Assembly: GCA_963706595.1 (NCBI GenBank)
Contig: OY970166.1
Span: 2,112,001-2,176,000 of the forward strand
Source of the DNA: an uncultured cyanobacterium
GTDB lineage: Bacteria > Cyanobacteriota > Cyanobacteriia > Cyanobacteriales > Nostocaceae
Reading direction: 5' to 3'
DNA: 64,000 nt
Shown here piece by piece: positions 5,677 through 16,739 of the stretch. A model generated the notes under the pieces. That model did not search any database, was not told where the DNA came from, and worked only from the letters and a program-made list of their open reading frames with translations. Positions within the stretch are counted from its first letter, which is position 1, and every line of letters begins with the position of its first letter. Position numbers and translations under genes: made by a program.

Positions 5677-6441
5677 TTATTTCTGGTTGATAAACTCAAT
5701 TTGTGATGCTGAAATTTGCTTCACATTCGCTTCGATCATTAGTGTAATACTTTCCTGTTCAACTTCCATATTTATAATCCGAAATGCTATATCTTCCCAC
5801 TTCAAAAAAGGTAGATTTGCTAGTTCTTTTACCTTCTGCATAAATGCTGAAATTAGTTCTACAGAAATTCCTTCTCCTTCAGTACAAGTGACACTTGACA
5901 GCAAGATGGGTTGGGAATTAGTCCGGGGGATAAAAGTCAATGTCACACCTAATAAACGCGTATTTTCCTCTGATTTTAGCAGCCCTGTGGCATTGAACCC
6001 GATTTTGCCATCTCCAGGTAAAAATATATCAGTATGTTGCGGCTCAAAACTGATAATTTCGCCGTCTACATTTAACGGAAAGTTGGCTACCAAACTACGA
6101 ATTAAGTCTGAGGTCAAAGCGAGATTAATATCTGTTTTTGTGAGGACAATACGCGCCACCGCATTTACAGGTTCATTCAGTTCAATTTGACCGAAAATAG
6201 CACTTAAAGGATTTATGGAAATATTATCTGTTTGCAGTTTTATTTCCTGCACCCGGATATTTTCTTGTATTACTAATCCTTGACCTGCAACAGAAACTTT
6301 CTCGGCTTTTCCCTGGACAATTTTTACCACATCAGTGTCTACATTTATATCAATTTGTTCAGATGCATCTAGTTTTTCAGATACTCTTTGTTCTGCTTGA
6401 TGTGATATAAATTGTTCTTCTAAACGTTGGTTTTCTGGCAT
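5677..6441 (-). CDS. DUF2993/LmeA-like protein
   Basis: INPLSAIFGQIEL..P..A.ARIVLT..DIN.AL.S; likely ATG at 6441. Confidence 0.7.
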   Translation of the reverse strand: MPENQRLEEQFISHQAEQRVSEKLDASEQIDINVDTDVVKIVQGKAEKVSVAGQGLVIQENIRVQEIKLQTDNISINPLSAIFGQIELNEPVNAVARIVLTKTDINLALTSDLIRSLVANFPLNVDGEIISFEPQHTDIFLPGDGKIGFNATGLLKSEENTRLLGVTLTFIPRTNSQPILLSSVTCTEGEGISVELISAFMQKVKELANLPFLKWEDIAFRIINMEVEQESITLMIEANVKQISASQIEFINQK

Positions 6442-6739: not shown

Positions 6740-8944
6740 ATGACATCAAAAGCATCTTCCGCCCTACCTAATTTTTGTGAAGGGATTCAATATTTTGGTG
6801 AGGCGTTACCAAATTTTGAAAAATATGGTATAATGCCAGCTATAGAGTCTGGCAAGAAGGCGATCGCAGACCCTACAGATGCCGCAGCCGTCTATCAAAC
6901 TTTACTTGCTGCTGATGCCCTGCGCTACCTGACGCTGCAAGTTACAGCTAGTAAAGCATCTGGACACCCAGGCGGTTTTGCCAGTCAAGCAGAAGCTTAT
7001 GCAGCCCTAGTAATGCTGGGTCATAAGAATATTATCACCGAAGTGGGACACCACGCCCCTGGATTCTATAGTGCCATGTTTTTGGATCGTTCCTTGGAAG
7101 ACATGGGCATTTCTACAGTACAGCAATTGCGCGATCGCTTCCGCGAAAAGCACGGACTCTTAGGACACCTTTCCGGTTTCATTCCTGGCATTCTCGCACC
7201 GGCTGGACCACTAGGACAAGGACAACACTTTGCTATGTCCGCCGCCTTGCTGCATCAAGATAAATTATTCCCCTTTACTGTGGGTGATGGTGGATTGGGT
7301 GAGCCTTATATTGTCAGTGCGATCGCCCACTTTAACACAGCATATCCTAGCGTCACCAACTTCTTACCCGTCATGGTGTGGAATGGTTACAGCCAAGAAC
7401 ATCATAGTATGGTTTCCCTGAAAACCAACGCCGAAATGAAAGCCTACTGGCAAGGAAACGGTTTTGCGGAAGTCGTATTAGTGGATGCGAAAGACTTTGA
7501 CGACCAAAACCAACCAGGGGATTATGTAGATAGTACCGTCTTTTCCTTCGAGCAGCGCCTAGCCTTCACCAAAGCCGTACTTTTGGGAATAGATAAAGCC
7601 GCCCATTCTGCGATGAATGGACAGTTAACGGTATTCATCATTAAACAACTCAAAGGCGCAGGAGTTCACGCCCTGGGTTCCCAATCTCACAACCTTTATC
7701 CGAAAGATACCCTAGACGCGCCGCACATTATCAGTGCATTAAAAACCCGTGCTTTATCAGTAGAAGCTTGGGAATTAGTCCGCACAAATGCCGAACGCGC
7801 CGGAGGAGGTCCCGCAGCGAAAACAGTAGTTACAGAATTTGAATTACCCTTAGCAGATTTAGGACAATTACCATTAGAAGAATATACAGTAGGTGGAGAT
7901 CCCAAAGTTGCCACAACCGTAATGGGTAAATTAGTGGGATATGTGGGTAAAAAAGATAGTAACTTCTTAGTCACCAACGCCGACGGAAACGCCGCATCAG
8001 GAATTGGTAACATTAATGAAGCATTAAAAATCATTCACCCCACAACCGATGATTTATATAACCAAGCACCAAACGGACAAGTTTATGAACCATTGAGTGA
8101 AGATGCTTGTGCAGGTTTAGCGGCTGGTTTAGCCTTAATGGGTGCGAGAACATTATGGTGTTCTTATGAATCTTTTGCCATCAACGGTGTACCAATTTGG
8201 CAAACAGTCATCCAAGCAATGGCAGAATTGCGCCGTCAAACACCGTCTAGCATAACATTATTTACAGCCGGAGCATTAGAGCAAGGGCGCAACGGTTGGA
8301 CACACCAACGCCCGGAAATTGAAGCTTACTTTGCGTCACTGATGCGGAATGGAAATGTCTTCCCATTATTTCCCCCTGATGCTAACAGTATCCAAGGCTG
8401 TTATGACTGGGCTTTGCAAACAAAGAATAAGGGAATTGTGATTACAGCCAGTAAGTCACCGTTACCAATTCGCACAACTTTAGAACAAACTCGGCAAGGT
8501 TTAGAAGATGGTGCCATCTTATTACAAGAAGTCCCAGGAGATAAACAAGTTGTGTTTGCAGTCATTGGCGATATGACATTAATTCCTGTGTTTGAAGCGG
8601 CGGCTTTCTTAGAAACTGAAGGTATTGGAGTGAAGATTATTTCTATTATCAACCCTCGCCGTTTGTATCGTCCTAATGATACAGCTTGGGAAACTTGTTC
8701 AGAAGCCGATGGTGGTTTTATGGATGATGCCAAATTTGCCGAATTATTTGATGGAAGTGCCTTAATTGGTGTAACTGGTGGTGCTGCGGCGATGCTGGAA
8801 CCAATTATGTTACGCAGTAATTGCAAGCGTGATACTTTTGCCTGGAAGCGTGGGGAAACTACCGCCAGTGCGGGAGAGTTGATGGCGTTTAATGGCTTGA
8901 CTGCGGAAGCGTTGACTAAGCGTGCTATTGAGTTAGTGCATTAA
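6740..8944 (+). CDS. TPP-dependent phosphoketolase/transketolase-like enzyme
   Basis: SGHPGG, GPLGQG, GDG-x-NG TPP-binding motif, LSEDAC, QGRNGWTHQRP. Confidence 0.85.
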   Translation: MTSKASSALPNFCEGIQYFGEALPNFEKYGIMPAIESGKKAIADPTDAAAVYQTLLAADALRYLTLQVTASKASGHPGGFASQAEAYAALVMLGHKNIITEVGHHAPGFYSAMFLDRSLEDMGISTVQQLRDRFREKHGLLGHLSGFIPGILAPAGPLGQGQHFAMSAALLHQDKLFPFTVGDGGLGEPYIVSAIAHFNTAYPSVTNFLPVMVWNGYSQEHHSMVSLKTNAEMKAYWQGNGFAEVVLVDAKDFDDQNQPGDYVDSTVFSFEQRLAFTKAVLLGIDKAAHSAMNGQLTVFIIKQLKGAGVHALGSQSHNLYPKDTLDAPHIISALKTRALSVEAWELVRTNAERAGGGPAAKTVVTEFELPLADLGQLPLEEYTVGGDPKVATTVMGKLVGYVGKKDSNFLVTNADGNAASGIGNINEALKIIHPTTDDLYNQAPNGQVYEPLSEDACAGLAAGLALMGARTLWCSYESFAINGVPIWQTVIQAMAELRRQTPSSITLFTAGALEQGRNGWTHQRPEIEAYFASLMRNGNVFPLFPPDANSIQGCYDWALQTKNKGIVITASKSPLPIRTTLEQTRQGLEDGAILLQEVPGDKQVVFAVIGDMTLIPVFEAAAFLETEGIGVKIISIINPRRLYRPNDTAWETCSEADGGFMDDAKFAELFDGSALIGVTGGAAAMLEPIMLRSNCKRDTFAWKRGETTASAGELMAFNGLTAEALTKRAIELVH

Positions 8945-9092: not shown

Positions 9093-9806
9093 ATGAAGAA
9101 GATAATATTTGTTACTGGTGTTACAAGAATGAGAGAAGGATTTGTATGTGTGAGTGGGATAGACGAGCAAGGGAACTTTGTAAGACCACAGATTCACTAT
9201 CCTGAAAGACCAGGTATCAAGCAGGAATTTCTTTACGTTGAAGGACAAGCAGTAATAAAACCTCTCGCTAAAGTAGAACTAGAGTTCTTAAACCCTGTTG
9301 CTAAGTCAGCATTTCATACGGAAGATTGGGAAATTGATGGTGAAGTTCAACCCAGATTAGTAGGTATACCGAATGATAGTGAAAAATTAGTTATCCTTAA
9401 TCAAAAAACTGATTTTTCATTAGAACAGGCATTAGCTGAACAATCACGTTCAATTGTTATTGTCAAAAGCCGTGAAGTTCCTGAGATTGAAGTTAGAACA
9501 TGGGACGATCAGTTAAAATGTCACTTGTCATTTTATGATGAGTTTGGTGATTATCACCCACACTTACCAGTAACAGATGCAAACTGGTTAGCCGTTTGTA
9601 AGTTTCTTTGGCAAACAGATAGAACAAATTTACAACCAAGATTGACTAAAGCATTGCAAGGTAAAGATATATTTATTAGAATTGGTATAACAAGAGAGTG
9701 GAAAGGTCAAAAATGGCGGCAAATTTCAGGTGTTTTCTCAGTACCAGACTGGTTACAAGGAAAATGTTTTGCTGATTTAGATTATGATTTTAGCGACTAT
9801 GTATGA
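9093..9806 (+). CDS. Dual OB-fold domain (DuOB)-like protein
   Basis: N-terminal CVSG.D..G.FVRP and H.ED motifs, LPVTD and IRIGITR motifs; directly upstream of two DUF488 genes. Confidence 0.7.
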   Translation: MKKIIFVTGVTRMREGFVCVSGIDEQGNFVRPQIHYPERPGIKQEFLYVEGQAVIKPLAKVELEFLNPVAKSAFHTEDWEIDGEVQPRLVGIPNDSEKLVILNQKTDFSLEQALAEQSRSIVIVKSREVPEIEVRTWDDQLKCHLSFYDEFGDYHPHLPVTDANWLAVCKFLWQTDRTNLQPRLTKALQGKDIFIRIGITREWKGQKWRQISGVFSVPDWLQGKCFADLDYDFSDYV

Positions 9807-9818
9807 GAGAAATAAACC

Positions 9819-10367
9819 ATGAATAATGATAAAGACTTAATTAAAAATAACAATCAATTAACCTTATTTACTATTGGTCATTCCAACCACTGCATTAATA
9901 AATTTATAGAGCTTTTGAAAGCTAACAATGTTTTGTGTATTGTTGATGTGAGAAGTATTCCCTATAGTAAATACAACCAAAGTTTTACTAAAGAAAAACT
10001 ATCTTCAGAATTGCTCCAACATGGAATTGACTATATTTGGATGGGAAATACTTTGGGAGGACGTAGAGATGAATTAGAAAATTCTAGAGGATTTAGGCAA
10101 GATGATAAGTATGATTCAGACCAGGAATATAATACTGGAATTTTAGAACTTATGAGTGTAGCATTTTCCAAAAGAACTGCAATAATGTGTAGTGAAGAAG
10201 ATCCTCGTGACTGTCATCGGCACAAAATTATAGCTAATACTTTATTGCGAAACTTACCAAAAGATTATAAAATTAATAATGCAAAAATTACTCACATTCG
10301 AGCTAGTGGTAAACTAGAAGATGCTTCATTAGTTCAGATTTACTTTCAATTATCATTATTTGGCTAG
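9819..10367 (+). CDS. DUF488 family protein
   Basis: LFTIGHSN, IVDVRSIPYS, LGGR, MCSEEDPRDCHR motifs; C-terminal QLSLF. Confidence 0.9.
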   Translation: MNNDKDLIKNNNQLTLFTIGHSNHCINKFIELLKANNVLCIVDVRSIPYSKYNQSFTKEKLSSELLQHGIDYIWMGNTLGGRRDELENSRGFRQDDKYDSDQEYNTGILELMSVAFSKRTAIMCSEEDPRDCHRHKIIANTLLRNLPKDYKINNAKITHIRASGKLEDASLVQIYFQLSLFG

Positions 10368-10376
10368 TTACACAAT

Positions 10377-10814
10377 ATGGGAATTATATACACTATCGGA
10401 TTTACCAAAAAATCGGCAAAAGATTTTTTTGAATTATTAAAAAAAGAAAAAATTGATTTAGTTGCTGATGTCCGTCTTAATAATACTGGTCAGTTAGCAG
10501 GGTTTACGAAAAAAAAAGATTTAGAGTATTTTCTTGACCTTGTAGAAATAAAATACGAGCATTGGAATAATTTTGCTCCGACTAAAGAGATGCGTGATAA
10601 ATATCATGCTACTTGGAACTGGGAAGAGTATGAATCTTCATATCGAAGTCTTCTCAAAGGTCGAAATGCTTTAGAAAAGTTAAATAAACCAATCTTAACT
10701 AATCAAAAAGTATGCTTATTGTGTTCTGAACATACACCTGAAAAATGTCATCGAAGAATAGCATCAGAGATGTTATCTAATATAGTAGGTGGTACAAAGA
10801 TAGTTCATCTTTAG
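10377..10814 (+). CDS. DUF488 family protein (second subtype)
   Basis: IYTIGFTKKSA, DVRLNN..QLAGF, LLCSE..PEKCHRR motifs. Confidence 0.9.
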   Translation: MGIIYTIGFTKKSAKDFFELLKKEKIDLVADVRLNNTGQLAGFTKKKDLEYFLDLVEIKYEHWNNFAPTKEMRDKYHATWNWEEYESSYRSLLKGRNALEKLNKPILTNQKVCLLCSEHTPEKCHRRIASEMLSNIVGGTKIVHL

Positions 10815-10833: not shown

Positions 10834-11020
10834 GTAGGGTGGGTTAGCGACAGCGTAACCCACCAAACCAATAACCTAAACTAAAATGGTGGGTTAGGTT
10901 GCAAACAAAAATCTTCACGTTGAACATATTATTCTCTGCGCCTAACCCACCCTACATCCTTTGTGTCTTTAGGTTGCAAAGGTCAATCATCATGTTTACC
11001 AGATTATCCGGTGCGCCTCA
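10834..11020. repeat. GTAG-REP/REPIN-like repeat, copy 1 (full doublet 10834-10955 plus tail)
   Basis: Starts GTAGGGTGGGTTAG, ends CTAACCCACCCTAC (14-bp terminal inverted repeat); internal GGTGGGTTA/TAACCCACC hairpins. Confidence 0.85.
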
Positions 11021-11065
11021 GTTATAATAAAATAATACCGAAAATTTTACTCAATATAGGAGTTA

Positions 11066-11356
11066 ATGATGGTAACAAAAATTGAAGAAATATATAGAAA
11101 TATTGATACTTTACCAGAAGAAGCTCAAAGCTTACTACTTGATTTTATTCAGTTACTCAAAAAGCATTACCCAAAACCAGAAAATCAACACATAGAAAAT
11201 GAGAAAACTTTCTCATCTACCCAAAAACAAAAACCACATCCACTAGACACATTTATAGAAAAACATGGTGCTTGGGAAGATGAACGCACAGCAGAAGAAA
11301 TAGTCAAAGAAATTTATGATAGTCGGACTATTTCTAACTATGATATTAGCTTATGA
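11066..11356 (+). CDS. VapB-like antitoxin with DUF2281-like N-terminus
   Basis: LPEEAQ.LLLDFIQLL motif; AGGAG RBS; 4-nt overlap with the PIN gene. Confidence 0.75.
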   Translation: MMVTKIEEIYRNIDTLPEEAQSLLLDFIQLLKKHYPKPENQHIENEKTFSSTQKQKPHPLDTFIEKHGAWEDERTAEEIVKEIYDSRTISNYDISL

Positions 11357-11754
11357 CTTATTTATTAGATACTGACACTTGCATTTACTGGATTAAAAAC
11401 ATTAATTCAGTTAGAGATAAAATTAAACAAATAGGATGGGAGCAAATTTGTATTTGCAACATTACCGTTGCGGAATTATATTTTGGTGCTTATAATTCTC
11501 AACGAGTCACAGAAAATTTAACTCGTGCAGAAAAATTCATTCAAGATATTGAAGTTATAAATTTAGATAATAATGCTGTAAAAAAGTTTGGAGAATTAAA
11601 AGCTGAACTTCGCAAAATAGGACAACCAGTTGCAGATTTTGATTTACTAATTGCTAGTGTTGCACTGACGAAAAGCTATATTTTAGTAACTAATAACACT
11701 CGTCATTATAGCCGAATTTCTAAGTTGAAATTAGAAAACTGGATTTCAGCTTAA
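11353..11754 (+). CDS. vapC: VapC/PIN-domain toxin
   Basis: YLLDTDTCI, ELYFGA, DLLIASVAL, LVTNNTRHY. Confidence 0.9.
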   Translation: MTYLLDTDTCIYWIKNINSVRDKIKQIGWEQICICNITVAELYFGAYNSQRVTENLTRAEKFIQDIEVINLDNNAVKKFGELKAELRKIGQPVADFDLLIASVALTKSYILVTNNTRHYSRISKLKLENWISA

Positions 11755-11842
11755 AATATTTTTGTAGAAGTAGGTTAGAGCAAATAGCAAAAAATGACAA
11801 AATTTGCCATAGTATAAAAAAGTATATTCAGGAAATCACCTT

Positions 11843-12106
11843 ATGAAAAGTATGAATATTTCCTTACCTGATACTATGCGAACTTATATAGAAGAACAGG
11901 TAGCTCAAGGTGCTTACAGCAGCGTCAGTGAATATTTTCGGGAATTAGTGCGACAAGATCAAAAACAGAAAGCAAATGAACGTCTACAAACCATGCTCTT
12001 AGAAGGATTAAACTCTGGAAATGCAACAGAAATGACTGCTCAAGATTGGGAAGATATCCGTCAAACAGTCAGTGAAAGAATTAACAAACGTCAAAGCGCA
12101 AATTAG
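11843..12106 (+). CDS. ParD-like RHH antitoxin with no cognate ParE downstream
   Basis: MNISLP, YSSVSEYFRELVR, LLEGLNSG, DWEDIR; near-palindromic ATGACAAAATTTGCCAT upstream. Confidence 0.8.
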   Translation: MKSMNISLPDTMRTYIEEQVAQGAYSSVSEYFRELVRQDQKQKANERLQTMLLEGLNSGNATEMTAQDWEDIRQTVSERINKRQSAN

Positions 12107-12149
12107 CAGTGATGTATTAAATTTAAAAAAGACCTCCAAAAAAAACGCT

Positions 12150-12368
12150 ATGAAATTTCAAGTAATTTTCACTTATGATTCAGAATATCTAGGTTACGTT
12201 GCTGAAGTACCAGAACTTCCTGGTTGTGTCAGTCAAGGTAAAACCTTAGATGAAGCAATTGAAAATATCAAAGATGCAATAAAAGGCTATCTTCACGTAT
12301 TAGAAAAACATGGTAAACCGTATGTACCTAAAGAGTCTCAATCTTTTGTAGGAGAAGTATTAGTATAA
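12150..12368 (+). CDS. hicB: HicB family antitoxin
   Basis: YVAEVPELPGCVSQGKTLDEAIENIKDAI; ATG at 12150. Confidence 0.9.
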   Translation: MKFQVIFTYDSEYLGYVAEVPELPGCVSQGKTLDEAIENIKDAIKGYLHVLEKHGKPYVPKESQSFVGEVLV

Positions 12369-12587
12369 ATGGGACGTTTATCCAATATTTCCGGTAAACA
12401 AACAATCAAAATTTTTGAAAAATTTGGCTATGCTGTAGATCATCAAACCGGAAGTCATATCATACTTTGGCACGAATCAAAACCCATTTTATCAGTTCCC
12501 AATCATAAAGAACTAGCACCAGGGTTACTCAGAAGTTTAATTAGACAAGCAGAAATTACAGTAGATGAATTTTTAGGAAATAAGTAA
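12369..12587 (+). CDS. hicA: HicA family toxin
   Basis: QTGSH, SVPNHKEL.PGLLRSLIRQA. Confidence 0.9.
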   Translation: MGRLSNISGKQTIKIFEKFGYAVDHQTGSHIILWHESKPILSVPNHKELAPGLLRSLIRQAEITVDEFLGNK

Positions 12588-12595
12588 TACCTTTA

Positions 12596-12780
12596 GTGGG
12601 TAATCGCGTAACCCACCAAACCAATAACCTAAACTAAAATGGTGGGTTAGGTTGCAAACAAAAATCTTCACGTTGAACATACTATCTCTGCGCCTAACCC
12701 ACCCTAAATCCTTTGTTTCTTTAGGTTGCAAAGGTGAATGATCATGTTTACCAGATTATCCGGTGCGCCTCACCCACTTA
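12596..12780. repeat. GTAG-REP/REPIN-like repeat, copy 2
   Basis: 12606-12772 is near-identical to 10853-11020 (one indel, few substitutions). Confidence 0.9.
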
Positions 12781-12860
12781 GTTATGTTAATTACCTAGAG
12801 GATAAATAGGGTGTAATATAAGTTAAAACTTCAACAGCTTACCACACCCCAAATGTAATC

Positions 12861-13412
12861 ATGACCACAGATGCAGAATATCAAGGAAGAATTACCAGCT
12901 ATGACTGGGATGATTTAATGAGATTATGGTCAGAAATTAAAGCAAAAAATACTTCCAATTTTTGGGATGCAGATAAAGCATTAGAATATTTAGTTTTACG
13001 CGCATTTCAACTCGATGGTGCTGAAGTAGCTTGGCCTGATAGTGTAAAAATTAAAGGAAAAATAGTAGAACAAATTGACGGCGTGGTATACACAGACAGC
13101 CTAGCTTGCCTGATAGAATGTAAAGATACCACAGAAGAGGTTAATATTGAACCAATAGCAAAGCTACGAAATCAACTACTACGAAGACCAGCCACAGCTA
13201 TTGGTAGCGTGTTTAGTCGCACTGGATTTACAGAAGCCACCGTAACATTAACTGGGTTTGTTGCTCCTCAAACTATTCTATTGTGGGGAGGAGAAGAAAT
13301 TGAATATTCACTACAACATAAATTTATATGTAAATCCCTAGTCAAGAAATATCGTGTTTGTGTTCATAAAGGTATCCCTAACTACGACATTATAACGGAG
13401 AGTTTTTCATGA
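12861..13412 (+). CDS. Mrr-like PD-(D/E)XK restriction endonuclease
   Basis: LEYLVLRAF, EQIDGVV....LIECKD catalytic motif, FSRTGFT. Confidence 0.75.
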   Translation: MTTDAEYQGRITSYDWDDLMRLWSEIKAKNTSNFWDADKALEYLVLRAFQLDGAEVAWPDSVKIKGKIVEQIDGVVYTDSLACLIECKDTTEEVNIEPIAKLRNQLLRRPATAIGSVFSRTGFTEATVTLTGFVAPQTILLWGGEEIEYSLQHKFICKSLVKKYRVCVHKGIPNYDIITESFS

Positions 13413-13963
13413 CACTAGCATATATGATTGCAGAAAGTGAAACAAATATAGAGATTTTACAGAAATTACTGCCAAAAAATCTGATTCAAGATATCCAATT
13501 TATAGCAGGTGAAAGTTCTTACAGAGCGCGTTCTTTAGCTACTTCACTTCTAGCGACTCGAAAAATACCAGTTGCTCTTGTCATCGATGCAGATACAGAT
13601 CACGAATCTCAAGTATTTGAAAAGCAAGATTTAATTAATTATGTATTAAATCAAGCATCTTCTGGTACTCCATTTCAATTATTTTTGGCTGTTCCTCAAT
13701 TAGAAATTTTATTGTTAGAAGATAAATCATTAATTGAGAAAATGGCACAAAGGAAATTTAATGATTTAGAATGGCAATTTGCCCAAAGTAAACCTAAAAA
13801 ATTTTTAGAGACAGTCTTAGGAAAAGAACAGTCAATAAACGAGAGAATATTTAGTAATATCAATGAGCAAGAAATTAAGATATTACGACAACACCCATTA
13901 ATACAACAAATGATAGTTTTCTTATCATCTCTGACCTCAGACGTGATGATAACACAGCGATGA
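13409..13963 (+). CDS. Hypothetical protein with TOPRIM-like motifs
   Basis: YMIAESE (first-strand Glu), VALVIDAD (DxD), AVPQLEILL; ATGA overlap with the nuclease gene. Confidence 0.5.
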   Translation: MTLAYMIAESETNIEILQKLLPKNLIQDIQFIAGESSYRARSLATSLLATRKIPVALVIDADTDHESQVFEKQDLINYVLNQASSGTPFQLFLAVPQLEILLLEDKSLIEKMAQRKFNDLEWQFAQSKPKKFLETVLGKEQSINERIFSNINEQEIKILRQHPLIQQMIVFLSSLTSDVMITQR

Positions 13964-13964
13964 C

Positions 13965-14027
13965 GGGTTAGCGATCGCGTAACCCACCAAAGCAATAACC
14001 CAAGTGTAAATACTGGCTGAGGTTGCA
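13965..14027. repeat. GTAG-REP-like repeat, copy 3 (partial, HIP1 in loop)
   Basis: GGGTTAGCGATCGCGTAACCCACC...AGTGTAAATACTGGCTGAGGTTGCA. Confidence 0.85.
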
Positions 14028-14071
14028 CGTCGCCAAATTGGTAGCGAAGCCGCACGTAAATTGATAAAAAC

Positions 14072-14332
14072 CTATTTTTTATACACCTCTCGCCGATGCT
14101 TACATTGAATGAGTAAAATAATTAATTCTTGATCTTGAATTTCATAACGTAAGCGATAGTCTCCAATTCTAATTCGATATTCATTTTCATAACCTTTCAG
14201 TTTTACTACTCCATTAGGACGAGGTTCGTCTGCAAGCTGGCAAATCTTTTCATATACACGCTCTTTGAGATTATTAGGAAGATTATCTAATTGTTTTTGA
14301 ATAGATTTAGTTATAATAATTTGGTACGTCAT
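14072..14332 (-). CDS. relE: RelE/ParE family toxin
   Basis: PRPNGVVKLKG, YRIRIGDYRLRYEI, HRREVY. Confidence 0.9.
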   Translation of the reverse strand: MTYQIIITKSIQKQLDNLPNNLKERVYEKICQLADEPRPNGVVKLKGYENEYRIRIGDYRLRYEIQDQELIILLIQCKHRREVYKK

Positions 14333-14337
14333 AGTAT

Positions 14338-14580
14338 CTATTTACGCTGATTGCTTAGATACTGCTCAAAAGTAGTATATTCACCATTGGCGTATTCATC
14401 ACGTACTAACTGAATCTCTCTTGCAGTTGCTTCATCTTCTTCCCAACTTTCTTCTTCAGCTTCAGCAATAGCTTGATCAAGAATCTCCCAAAGTAGCTTT
14501 TTTTCTGATAGATTTAGCCCACTTAAGGAGTTGATGAGTAACTCCATAGGAATGAATAAATTTAGTCCTGCTTGTGACAT
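14338..14580 (-). CDS. Antitoxin partner of RelE
   Basis: Small acidic ORF 5 nt upstream of relE; GEYTTFEQY C-terminus. Confidence 0.7.
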   Translation of the reverse strand: MSQAGLNLFIPMELLINSLSGLNLSEKKLLWEILDQAIAEAEEESWEEDEATAREIQLVRDEYANGEYTTFEQYLSNQRK

Positions 14581-14676
14581 TGCTTTGATTATCCTAATGT
14601 CTATCTTTATATTTTATCAGATAACTATTAGTTGATAGCACAAAATCGTGTTTTTGAATAGATTAAGTTATAGTAT

Positions 14677-14788
14677 GTAGGCTGAGTTAGCGATCGCATA
14701 ACCCACCAAACCAGTAACCCAAGTGTAAATACTGGCTGAGGTTGCAAAGGTGAATCATCATATTTACCAGATTATCCGGTGCGCCTCA
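14677..14788. repeat. GTAG-REP-like repeat, copy 4
   Basis: GTAGGCTGAGTTAGCGATCGCATAACCCACC...AGGTTGCAAAGG...CCGGTGCGCCTCA; combines the parts seen in copies 1 and 3. Confidence 0.85.
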
Positions 14789-14833
14789 GTTATAATAAAA
14801 TAATACCGAAAATTTTACTCAACGTAGGAGTTA

Positions 14834-15103
14834 ATGATGGTAATAAAAATTGAAGAAATATATAGAGATATTGATACTTTACCAGAAGAAGCTCAAACCT
14901 TACTACTTGATTTTATTCAGTTACTCAAAAAGCGTTACCCACAAACAGAATTAGAAAATAATACTTCTATTTCTCCTCTCCAAAGCCTAGAATCTTTATC
15001 TGAACTTGACCCCTGGACACAAAGCCTAATAGGTGTAATTCCCTTAGAATCACAAAATCCAGAAGAAATTTATGTTAATTACCTAGAGGAGAAATATAGT
15101 TGA
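14834..15103 (+). CDS. VapB-like antitoxin with DUF2281-like N-terminus
   Basis: N-terminal ~36 aa nearly identical to 11066..11356; different C-terminus (WTQSLIGVI..Y.NYLEEKY). Confidence 0.75.
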   Translation: MMVIKIEEIYRDIDTLPEEAQTLLLDFIQLLKKRYPQTELENNTSISPLQSLESLSELDPWTQSLIGVIPLESQNPEEIYVNYLEEKYS

Positions 15104-15516
15104 AACGGGTATTATTTGACAGCGATGTTTTGCTGGATATTTTAGCAGAGCGTCAACCGTTTGTTGTCGCCTCAGCACAAGCATTAAATACAGTCATCAA
15201 AAAACAGGTACAAGGCTTTGTTTCAGGACACGCTGTTACTAATATTTTCTATATTTTACGTCGCCAAATCGGTAGCGAAGCAGCACGTAAATTAATAGAA
15301 ACCTTATTGCAACACATTCAAATTGCCAGCGTTACAGATGAAGTAATTCACCAAGCTTTGCAAAGTCCAATTAAAGATTTTGAAGATGCGGTGACAAGTG
15401 CAGCAGCAATGGCTGCAAGTTTAGAAATAATTGTGACACGAAATACATCCGATTTTGTAGCTTCTTCAGTCCCAGCAGTGTTACCAGAAGAGTTCTTAAA
15501 AATTGTTTCTGATTAA
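15100..15516 (+). CDS. PIN-domain toxin
   Basis: VLFDSDVLLD, DFEDAV, IVTRNTSDF, PEEFL. Confidence 0.85.
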   Translation: MKRVLFDSDVLLDILAERQPFVVASAQALNTVIKKQVQGFVSGHAVTNIFYILRRQIGSEAARKLIETLLQHIQIASVTDEVIHQALQSPIKDFEDAVTSAAAMAASLEIIVTRNTSDFVASSVPAVLPEEFLKIVSD

Positions 15517-15581
15517 GTTAGTATAAATAAAGATAGGACTACACAAGTAAACCCCTTTCACATGGCAAAACCATACAAATT

Positions 15582-15768
15582 ATGATTCTCGAACCAAGCG
15601 AATCTACTCAAAAAATAGATTCTGAAGAATCCAAAATACAGCAATTTTTAGCACGAGTTAATAACTACTCCTTCCCACTCCCCCCAGACTACAAATTCAA
15701 TCGAGAAAAAATCTATGACAGATAAAATATTTCTCGATACCAATCTCTGGATTTATCTCTATGCTAAA
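15582..15768 (+). pseudogene. Remnant vapBC cassette: antitoxin C-terminal part (15582-15725) plus first 18 codons of a PIN toxin (from 15715)
   Basis: Translates as ...LPPDYKFNREKIYDR* overlapping MTDKIFLDTNLWIYLYAK, then runs into the opposite-strand gene. Confidence 0.75.
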
Positions 15769-15983
15769 AAATTTTTATTGCTAGACAAATCATTTGCTGC
15801 TTCCACACAACCAATGTATTCTTGAGCCATAGTTAAAGCCGAAATACCTGATTTTTGGGGTTGATTTGATAACCCTTGTTTGTGGATTTTCGCTAGTAAA
15901 AATTCTACAAAATCCAGCGCCTCTTGTTGCCTATCAGGAGGTAATATCCTTACCTTGTCTATAATAATTTCTTCAATACTCAT
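15759..15983 (-). CDS. Orphan DUF2281-like antitoxin (possibly 3' truncated)
   Basis: LPPDRQQEALDFVEFL, DLSSNK; no toxin downstream. Confidence 0.7.
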   Translation of the reverse strand: MSIEEIIIDKVRILPPDRQQEALDFVEFLLAKIHKQGLSNQPQKSGISALTMAQEYIGCVEAANDLSSNKNFLA

Positions 15984-16050
15984 TTTATTTGTCCTCTGGG
16001 AGAAATAAATATAGTTTAAATTTTATCACATAACACTATAATTAGCTAAT

Positions 16051-16098
16051 AGTGTAAATAGTGGCTGAGGTTGCAAAGGACAATCATCATGTTTACCA
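16051..16098. repeat. Repeat copy 5 (internal segment)
   Basis: AGTGTAAATAGTGGCTGAGGTTGCAAAGGACAATCATCATGTTTACCA matches 14722-14769. Confidence 0.8.
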
Positions 16099-16148
16099 AA
16101 AAATATCAAAATAATATATACTACTGATAGTATGACTGTGGGTAGGAT

Positions 16149-16370
16149 ATGGCTAAAATCTCAATTTCATTGCCAGATGAACTACTAAATTACATTGACC
16201 AAAAAGTTGAAAACCGTAGTGCATTGATTGAAAATCTCTTGAAACAATGGCAAGAAAAACAACAAGATGAAGCACTAGCGGCCGCTTGCGCCTTGGTTGA
16301 TGAATTAGAATTAGGTTGGGAAAGTGAATGGCAAAATATAGCGATTACCGAATGGGAAGCATCTGGATAG
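16149..16370 (+). CDS. CopG/RHH antitoxin (MazE-type partner)
   Basis: KISISLPDELL.YID, NRSALIE; overlaps the toxin gene. Confidence 0.8.
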   Translation: MAKISISLPDELLNYIDQKVENRSALIENLLKQWQEKQQDEALAAACALVDELELGWESEWQNIAITEWEASG

Positions 16371-16705
16371 TAACATTTGATTTCTCTGTAGGTACAGAAA
16401 TTCAAAAAACTCGTCCAGCACTCATAGTTTCTGGGACTTTGTTTAACAACCAACGCAGCAAAGTCACAGTTTTACCTTTTACTTCCGCCAAACCTAATAA
16501 TCCTCGTATTTCACCTGCGGTAGTTGCAGTACCTTCATCATCACAAAATGGACTTTCTGTAGACAGTCTTTTGATATGCGTTGAACCGATGACATTTGAC
16601 AAAATTCGTTTAACTCAACAACTAGGTGAATTAGAAACAGAATTACTAGAAAAAACCCAAAATATTCTGCGTAGATACCTGAGTTTAAGCAACTATCAAT
16701 CGTAA
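16328..16705 (+). CDS. mazF: PemK/MazF family toxin
   Basis: SVGTEIQKTRPALIVS, VTVLPFTS, NGLSVDS, DKIRL. Confidence 0.9.
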   Translation: MAKYSDYRMGSIWIVTFDFSVGTEIQKTRPALIVSGTLFNNQRSKVTVLPFTSAKPNNPRISPAVVAVPSSSQNGLSVDSLLICVEPMTFDKIRLTQQLGELETELLEKTQNILRRYLSLSNYQS

Positions 16706-16708
16706 TTT

Positions 16709-16739
16709 GTAGGTTGGGTTACACAATTTGCAACCCAAC
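16709..16739. repeat. GTAG-REP-like hairpin at the right border of the island
   Basis: GTAG-GTTGGGTT-N11-AACCCAAC. Confidence 0.7.

Follow-up and report, generated by a model that had tools for sequence, protein, structure and literature searches.

A 64,000-nucleotide stretch from an uncultured cyanobacterium of the family Nostocaceae (assembly GCA_963706595.1, contig OY970166.1), here called the window, corresponds to G000:C1:2112001-2176000 in a genome (G000) that consists of a single 5.57-Mb contig. Behind the phosphoketolase-like gene xfp it carries an array of toxin-antitoxin (TA) and candidate defence modules, between several of which lie copies of one repeat, termed the hub (Table 1). 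Our comparisons favour the view that the DNA behind xfp is a family-wide hotspot of horizontal transfer with integron-like behaviour, in which modules are probably exchanged by host recombination together with deletion at short homologies. The array has a fixed position, scrambled module order and fixed module orientation, its modules are exchanged across species, and it contains ragged, lineage-specific direct repeats as well as displaced tails of xfp; from these features we infer the recombining enzyme. A prediction made from the sequence alone (the original prediction) had taken the repeats for capture sites of a cassette platform based on repetitive extragenic palindromic (REP) elements and driven by a transposase in trans.

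The DNA behind xfp was compared in 11 genomes of the genus (G000 and all 10 relatives), with order strings curated by hand and fragments counted. The xfp protein shows 95-99% amino acid identity in 10 of 10 genus genomes and the gene forms the left flank in all of them. The common modules follow it in differing order: 128 of 340 module pairs are swapped, 52 distinct adjacencies occur among 79 junctions, and 5 of the 38 genome pairs sharing at least three modules agree in order. Cassettes are therefore gained, lost and reordered among relatives as had been predicted, often with the switch inside the repeat. Orientation, on the other hand, is constant in 173 of 173 module matches with at least 60% identity from 41 loci (each probe's own source included) and in 161 of 161 such matches from 20 further loci; matches below 60% identity, some of them in opposite orientation (20-42%), were treated as different genes and left out of this count. 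No inverted alignment was found among the 11 genus arrays. The slot adjoining xfp is occupied by a different gene or operon in nearly every genome.

The ancestral right anchor consists of a 71-amino-acid gene and an SLH/fasciclin gene, which close the variable region in 6 of the 10 relatives, and G029 represents an empty site between xfp and this anchor. In G000 the right anchor has been relocated to C1:1715461, and mazEF is followed by psaJ. While xfp holds as the left boundary of the proposed phosphoketolase-to-psaJ locus, psaJ was rejected as its right anchor, as the relatives end at the 71-amino-acid and SLH/fasciclin genes. A simple inversion joining the G000 array to the old right anchor is not supported either: the DNA beside the anchor is unlike the DNA following psaJ in relatives. 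Both the DNA by the displaced anchor (G000:C1:1715460-1716700) and that behind psaJ in L022-L026 resemble variable sites themselves. Contigs from four public runs, in which circles are indistinguishable from reordered arrays and which do not show expression, contained joints that fit the orders known from G002; a mixed seawater sample added a few that were new.

The five hub copies of the window (starting at 10834, 12596, 13965, 14677 and 16051) all lie on one strand and consist of two layers, a genome-wide GTAG REP/REPIN family and an array-specific part. The REP/REPIN origin of the repeat is thus confirmed. The GTAG REP family has 140 copies in the genome if one mismatch per arm is allowed, many of them as inverted doublets, and in the REPIN layout GTAG with its hairpin is separated from an inverted REP by a spacer of about 22 nt. 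Within 5.57 Mb, the array-specific spacer (four copies) and the core AGGTTGCA-N-TGCGCCT (five copies) are found exclusively inside the array. The core region has 30 matches in the 11 genus genomes, and every one of them lies within an array behind xfp (that of G009 runs on into a second contig); among 185,579 species genomes the 24-nt core occurs on four contigs only, three recorded as Nodularia and one as Anabaena sp. Pattern scans of metagenome and viral contigs for the array found nothing. The hub resembles the REP/REPIN systems of Bertels et al. 2017 (PMC5581495) in starting as a GTAG REPIN, in belonging to a dispersed family and in having a matching REP-associated tyrosine transposase (RAYT). 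It differs from their mode of dispersal in that the array copies were multiplied by local duplication along with array-specific spacer, loop and leader.

Two further repeat copies had been proposed. A weak copy near 11770 was rejected, since it matches only itself and folds at -2.9 kcal/mol, and the hairpin at 16709-16739 is assigned to a sister REP family of the GTAGGTTGGGTT type with 86 copies. HIP1 is indeed present in the hairpin loops at 13971 and 14690; as the genome contains 4324 HIP1 sites, two copies in 5.9 kb represent no excess, and HIP1 was rejected as a special site. Most hub REP loops of the relatives carry HIP1, which does not separate the models. A MITE of about 125 bp abuts REP ends throughout G000, where 57 of 146 terminal motifs run straight into GTAG, and is also inserted in hub copies of relatives (L004 about 5790-5900 and L009 about 6950-7070, oriented behind xfp).

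The genus arrays hold 45 hub copies, which account for 43 of the 79 junctions, so that the breakpoints lie in the repeat in part only. In the window, 5 of 9 junctions carry the repeat; vapBC-1, parD and hicBA share one interval, as do vapBC-2, the vapBC remnant and the DUF2281 gene, and the idea that the repeat delimits the modules does not hold for the other four junctions. The end of the restriction endonuclease (REase) module has five different right neighbours in seven arrays and the DUF2281/PIN module five in six, all joined via a hub. Furthermore, 144 of 335 alignment ends, which are not independent of each other, lie within 10 nt of a hub, while hubs cover 11% of the length. Depending on the module, hubs start at positions 1, 6-7, 9-12, 22-23 or 46-51 and end at 46, 55, 70-72, 93, 112, 138 or at 146 or later. 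Hubs spanning only 1-46 and hubs spanning only 51-70 both exist and do not overlap, which together with the ragged ends means that no single base was the crossover for all events. The REase module precedes either spacer type and thus requires a crossover upstream of about position 46. The remaining 36 junctions are without a hub; those examined are deletions, abrupt or sharing a few bases (up to 10), and often located inside genes.

Exchange between species is visible in the sequence divergence. Modules in the relatives are 92-99.7% identical to those of the window, as compared to 86-91% for neighbouring DNA, and at fourfold-degenerate sites the divergence amounts to 0-7.0% for modules and 22.5-28.9% for anchor genes in the eight genomes with both. 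Across genera, mazEF (present in 3 of 4 loci) is 92.7-96.2% identical and the 3′ end of xfp 83-84%.

The hotspot extends over the family and is older than the hub repeat. The 184-amino-acid gene of the REase module is present in 58 of 300 family genomes, and in the 49 of these in which xfp was located, it lies on the strand of xfp and less than 20 kb downstream of it in 22, far away in four and on a separate contig in 23. In other genera, whose arrays lack the hub except for one copy in G107, the same modules are shuffled and local direct repeats of their own are present, namely REP-containing duplications, parD scraps and antitoxin leaders. In 12 of the 49 genomes, the 3′ tail of xfp (its last 110-290 nt) is present in additional copies, whereas the enolase control gave none in 49. 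The 18 tail copies represent six left-flank classes with starts about -113 to -288 from the stop codon, one class being joined at two places. Of 11 tails tested, three precede DNA which in other genomes adjoins the 3′ side of an intact xfp; the insertion of a new block behind xfp, with displacement of the former first block, would lead to this arrangement. No tails are present in the window, and remnants were found in 2 of the 10 genus relatives (19 bp in G002, 18 bp in G005); the 19-bp scar is the same mazF-tail junction found in another genus. A short inverted repeat at 8799-8822 of the window (about -146 to -123 from the xfp stop) lies beside the tail junctions at -138 to -143. A PD-(D/E)XK gene (Pfam PDDEXK_3), which we take to be the one labelled 'GxxExxY', occupies the first slot in three genera (L003, L007, L011, L106, L109), behind xfp or a tail, and has flanking repeats of its own.

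Scattered REP copies, ragged hub ends, hubless junctions and the shuffling without the repeat in other genera do not agree with a REP-specific capture platform. Neither was the expected enrichment of the repeat beside TA genes observed: REP copies accompany 1 of 18 VapC loci, in comparison to 5.3-6.5% of 923 small open reading frames. These 18 loci were derived from 22 PIN matches by dropping two in the array and one inside a 371-amino-acid gene and by merging two halves, and none of them has a comparable repeat array.

We propose that incoming DNA from relatives, provided by natural transformation, or from sister chromosomes would be recombined by RecA, with a left crossover at xfp or any shared module and a right crossover at any shared direct repeat. 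A right crossover at a non-equivalent repeat copy would add, replace or tandemly duplicate blocks, and deletions at short homologies would prune the stack, leaving orphans and scraps behind. Since all homologies are direct, the order can change and the orientation cannot. The hubs may be by-products of earlier duplications that turned into crossover targets. In the genus of the window this target would be a REPIN-derived piece of 50-230 bp; in other genera its place would be taken by xfp tails, scraps of parD or further REP-containing duplications. Once inside the array, such a repeat or tail would enable further additive events and so reinforce itself. TA modules resist loss; those of the array may persist partly for this reason and possibly through a putative role in phage defence. 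The genes recA, comEC and dprA are intact in G000. A full competence set is found in 89.6% of Nostocales genomes, and transformation has been shown for few (PMC13603067).

A number of observations weigh against this explanation. Competence genes do not prove transformation (PMC13603067). The heptamer GGTTGCA is included in 41 of 45 hubs and three unrelated modules start right after it, the first hub begins exactly at GTAG in all 10 arrays having one, and independent tail junctions coincide (three at -138 to -143 and two at -180 to -183); these features could reflect preferred cutting sites. The switches from vapBC-2 to relBE and from DUF2281 to relBE need a crossover within 20-25 bp, which is short for RecA unless a long anchor or slippage helps. 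Homogenisation of the hubs within a genome, as in concerted evolution, was significant in one of four tests (p 0.02, 0.79, 0.14 and 0.19). In G004, codons 600-700 of xfp are less divergent at fourfold sites (8% and 2%), but a dip in these codons also occurs among other genus genomes (6%, 3%) and the divergence rises again in the last 34 codons, so that the sign of recombination at the 3′ end of xfp is weak. Finally, all comparisons are between species, and no single-step event was caught.

An integrative element could have produced part of this picture, although we consider it unlikely. A site-specific integrase aimed at the 3′ end of xfp would have left the tails by tandem accretion and then been lost, or would act in trans, and host recombination would only have reshuffled the cargo. 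Cis-mobilizable elements and integrative and conjugative elements accrete in tandem at the 3′ ends of housekeeping genes and need element-encoded integrases, while the C-terminal displacement arrays of rhs and cdiA exchange the toxin tips that the anchor gene itself encodes; the xfp locus resembles both in having displaced gene tails followed by older cargo. The tails preceding former first-slot cargo, the grouping of independent tail starts around -140 and -182 and the first-slot genes differing in almost all genomes agree with such an element, and so does the role of displaced 3′ fragments as marks of additive islands at tRNA genes (PMC4898812). In G031, an 88-amino-acid remnant of a tyrosine recombinase (L049:11481-11747) stands immediately after xfp and precedes further defence and TA genes. 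Accretion by an integrase is, however, difficult to reconcile with six left-flank classes whose starts range from about -113 to -288, one of them joined at two places, and with the genus of the window, which holds mere tail remnants yet shuffles equally. As had been noted from the sequence, the window array contains no integrase; eight tyrosine-recombinase domain matches lie elsewhere in G000, and the integrases of G000, used as probes that could miss distant ones, revealed no full-length integrase in 61 downstream loci. Mobile genes in the relatives' arrays are exceptions, namely a DDE transposase in G028, an unrelated RAYT in G023 and the remnant in G031. The RAYT of G023 is of another class and lies in the first slot with its own flanking palindromes (L055 about 740-1140, oriented behind xfp).

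Somewhat more doubtful still is an active role of RAYT, a HUH nuclease which would cut and join single-stranded DNA at the REP part of the hub, making the hub a capture or excision site, or at least the place of a recombination-starting nick. The genome-wide search suggested by the original prediction did yield one such gene above the NF047646 cut-off (G000:C1:4904613-4905164, 179.9 bits versus 80), located in trans at 2.8 Mb from the array and flanked on both sides by the GTAG REP family of the array. Two more RAYT-like genes (G000:C1:329111-329707 and 4762438-4762851) are each flanked by a different, non-GTAG palindrome family. The exact GTAG start of the first hub, next to nine different left flanks in 10 arrays, the proximity of alignment ends to hubs and the local duplications in G013, G028, G025 and G032 that also contain or abut REP hairpins would suit the enzyme, but a GTAG boundary is equally expected from a crossover inside a gene's own trailing REP. 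Moreover, 9 of 45 hubs are without a REP hairpin end, including those after the DUF2281 module with its five neighbours; nearly half of the junctions are hubless, REP is not enriched at VapC loci, and in several genomes the arrays shuffle by xfp tails or parD scraps instead. With the one query used, RAYT relatives were found in 34 of 49 family genomes and not in the other 15; among the genus genomes, which are drafts, they were not found in 4 of 10, whose arrays are equally shuffled.

A true integron remnant, that is a cluster of attC sites lacking an integrase (CALIN), or an array of Xer/pdif modules with unusual sites is very improbable: TA-rich cassettes do lie between imperfect palindromes on one strand, and a 47-nt stretch of the long hub fits what we take to be the attC box consensus with one mismatch, but such a match occurs in the two long hubs only and in none of the three short ones, the exact box pair is found in 0 of 5 hubs, and attC-like matches number 3 in the region versus 1.8 in shuffles. 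In G000 the best IntI match (TIGR02249) reaches 31 bits versus a cut-off of 265 and XerD, searched without a separate XerC search, 36.6 versus 329.6 bits, while full-length IntI above the cut-off is present in 2 of 49 related genomes (G013:C73, G026:C55) on contigs other than that of the array. The Acinetobacter pdif modules (PMC13141974) likewise contain TA modules reordered between genomes, but have XerC/D sites, reside on plasmids and invert, whereas in the xfp array no XerD was found and nothing inverts.

Table 1. The xfp locus in the window, with positions counted from the first base of the window
Feature	Position	Strand	Basis or remark
xfp, phosphoketolase-like, conserved left anchor	6740..8944	+	NCBIfam phosphoketolase matches below cut-off
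DuOB and two DUF488 genes, first-slot module, PDC-M45-like candidate defence operon	9093..10814	+	PADLOC PDC-M45B/C matches
Repeat hub 1, long form	10834..11065	+	REPIN, core hairpin and leader
vapBC-1, DUF2281-type antitoxin and PIN	11066..11754	+	PIN domain at 11353
parD	11843..12106	+	ParD match; ParE partner deleted after a few codons
hicB-hicA	12150..12587	+	HicB/HicA matches
Repeat hub 2, long form minus first 5 bases	12596..12772	+	
Mrr-like restriction-endonuclease gene and 184-amino-acid gene (no named family)	12861..13963	+	
Repeat hub 3, short form ending after GGTTGCA; HIP1 in loop	13965..14027	+	
47-bp scrap of vapC-2, moves with relBE module	14028..14073	+	
relE/parE-type toxin and antitoxin (relBE)	14072..14580	-	ParE/RelE match
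Repeat hub 4, full short form and leader; HIP1 in loop	14677..14833	+	
vapBC-2	14834..15516	+	PIN domain at 15100
Third antitoxin-PIN module, remnant	15564..15766	+	intact in G005, G007, G008, G006
DUF2281 antitoxin, PIN partner deleted here and intact in relatives	15759..15983	-	DUF2281 match
Repeat hub 5, middle part only, without REP hairpin	16051..16098	+	
mazE-mazF	16149..16705	+	PemK/MazF match
Sister-family REP trailing mazEF; right end of array in G000	16709..16739	+	

The domain matches in Table 1 bear out the module array given in the original prediction, whose list lacked the first-slot DuOB operon and the left anchor xfp. Its REase and TOPRIM-like module is supported in part: the REase has a weak Mrr_cat match (E 5e-4, below cut-off), and TOPRIM was not confirmed, the 184-amino-acid gene showing no Pfam or NCBIfam match and the only Atlas lead being DUF4276, carried by 18% of one cluster. 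Hub 1 comprises a GTAG REP, the spacer, an inverted long-loop REP completing the REPIN, the array-specific core hairpin and a leader shared by the DUF2281-PIN modules. The ParE partner of the window parD is intact in G009 and G024. Among 300 family genomes, two have the DuOB-DUF488-DUF488 operon, in each case immediately after xfp and with the repeat absent there. In the window (11066-11182 and 14834-14963) and in relatives, a single DUF2281-type N-terminal piece and the leader belonging to it are joined to various antitoxin C-termini and pair with three different PIN toxins across the arrays, which points to recombination inside the antitoxin gene as a means of swapping toxin partners. An Rfam scan for structured RNA gave two chance matches only, and promoter and terminator scans remained at chance level (28 versus 32 and 4 versus 4), so that the leaders noted earlier are not evidence either way.

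Among the known systems, the xfp locus fits best with recombinase-free hotspots or minimal mobile elements and with additive islands (PMC5635113, PMC8627216, PMC4898812, PMC10250203). With recombinase-free hotspots (PMC5635113) and the minimal mobile elements of Neisseria (Saunders and Snyder, defined in PMC8627216) it shares the fixed site by a conserved core gene, rapid turnover, the lack of integrase and transposase and the presence of competence genes. These systems replace the whole interval by a double crossover at two flanks, whereas the xfp array permutes a deck of about 13 modules internally via direct repeats with orientation kept, and is retained also where a rearrangement has removed the right flank. 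The additive islands of Alteromonas (PMC4898812) and the core defence hotspots of P. aeruginosa (PMC10250203) resemble it in varying cassette number and order, in near-identical cassettes in different species and in displaced 3′ fragments of the anchor gene that mark additions. In contrast to these, the anchor is a protein gene and not a tRNA or tmRNA gene, the tails vary in length, the probes used revealed no integrase, and in the genus of the window the marker is a REPIN-derived repeat and not a gene tail. Integrons and CALINs (Cury et al. 2016, PMC4889954) share with the locus TA-rich small modules that are reshuffled between direct palindromic repeats, and the position of the most variable genes at one end. 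The xfp array works like an integron array but does not qualify as one, since IntI, the attC box architecture and a single crossover point are all lacking; many of its junctions are repeatless, its modules have leaders of their own, and its repeats differ between genera. REPs have been linked to plastic regions before, including a TA locus in E. coli (PMC3184786).

More tentatively, the locus might be understood as a self-assembling, recombinase-free equivalent of an integron, in which the end of a core gene anchors a TA and defence deck shared throughout the family, each lineage recruits a local repeat of its own, and host recombination alone, possibly with RAYT nicks at REP, gives polar addition, inversion-free shuffling and exchange between genera. 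The surprising part is the orientation-locked permutation of one deck across the family, with a different recruited repeat per lineage. A full-text literature search, outside of which supplements and most subscription papers lie, gave no description of this locus.

Half of the bacterial gene-transfer hotspots are without recognisable mobile elements, and their turnover has been inferred rather than seen (PMC5635113). The xfp locus keeps a record of its junctions, with the same modules in many orders and different repeats per genus, and thereby makes hotspot turnover directly testable. It also illustrates how a scattered REPIN can become a site that delimits cassettes, which is relevant to the question of how integron-like arrays arise without an integrase. 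The slot directly behind xfp, where DuOB-DUF488, AAA-DUF4435, ABC-3C, GIY-YIG and AIG1 GTPase genes and several genes of no family were found, may serve as a marker for untested candidate defence genes in Nostocales.

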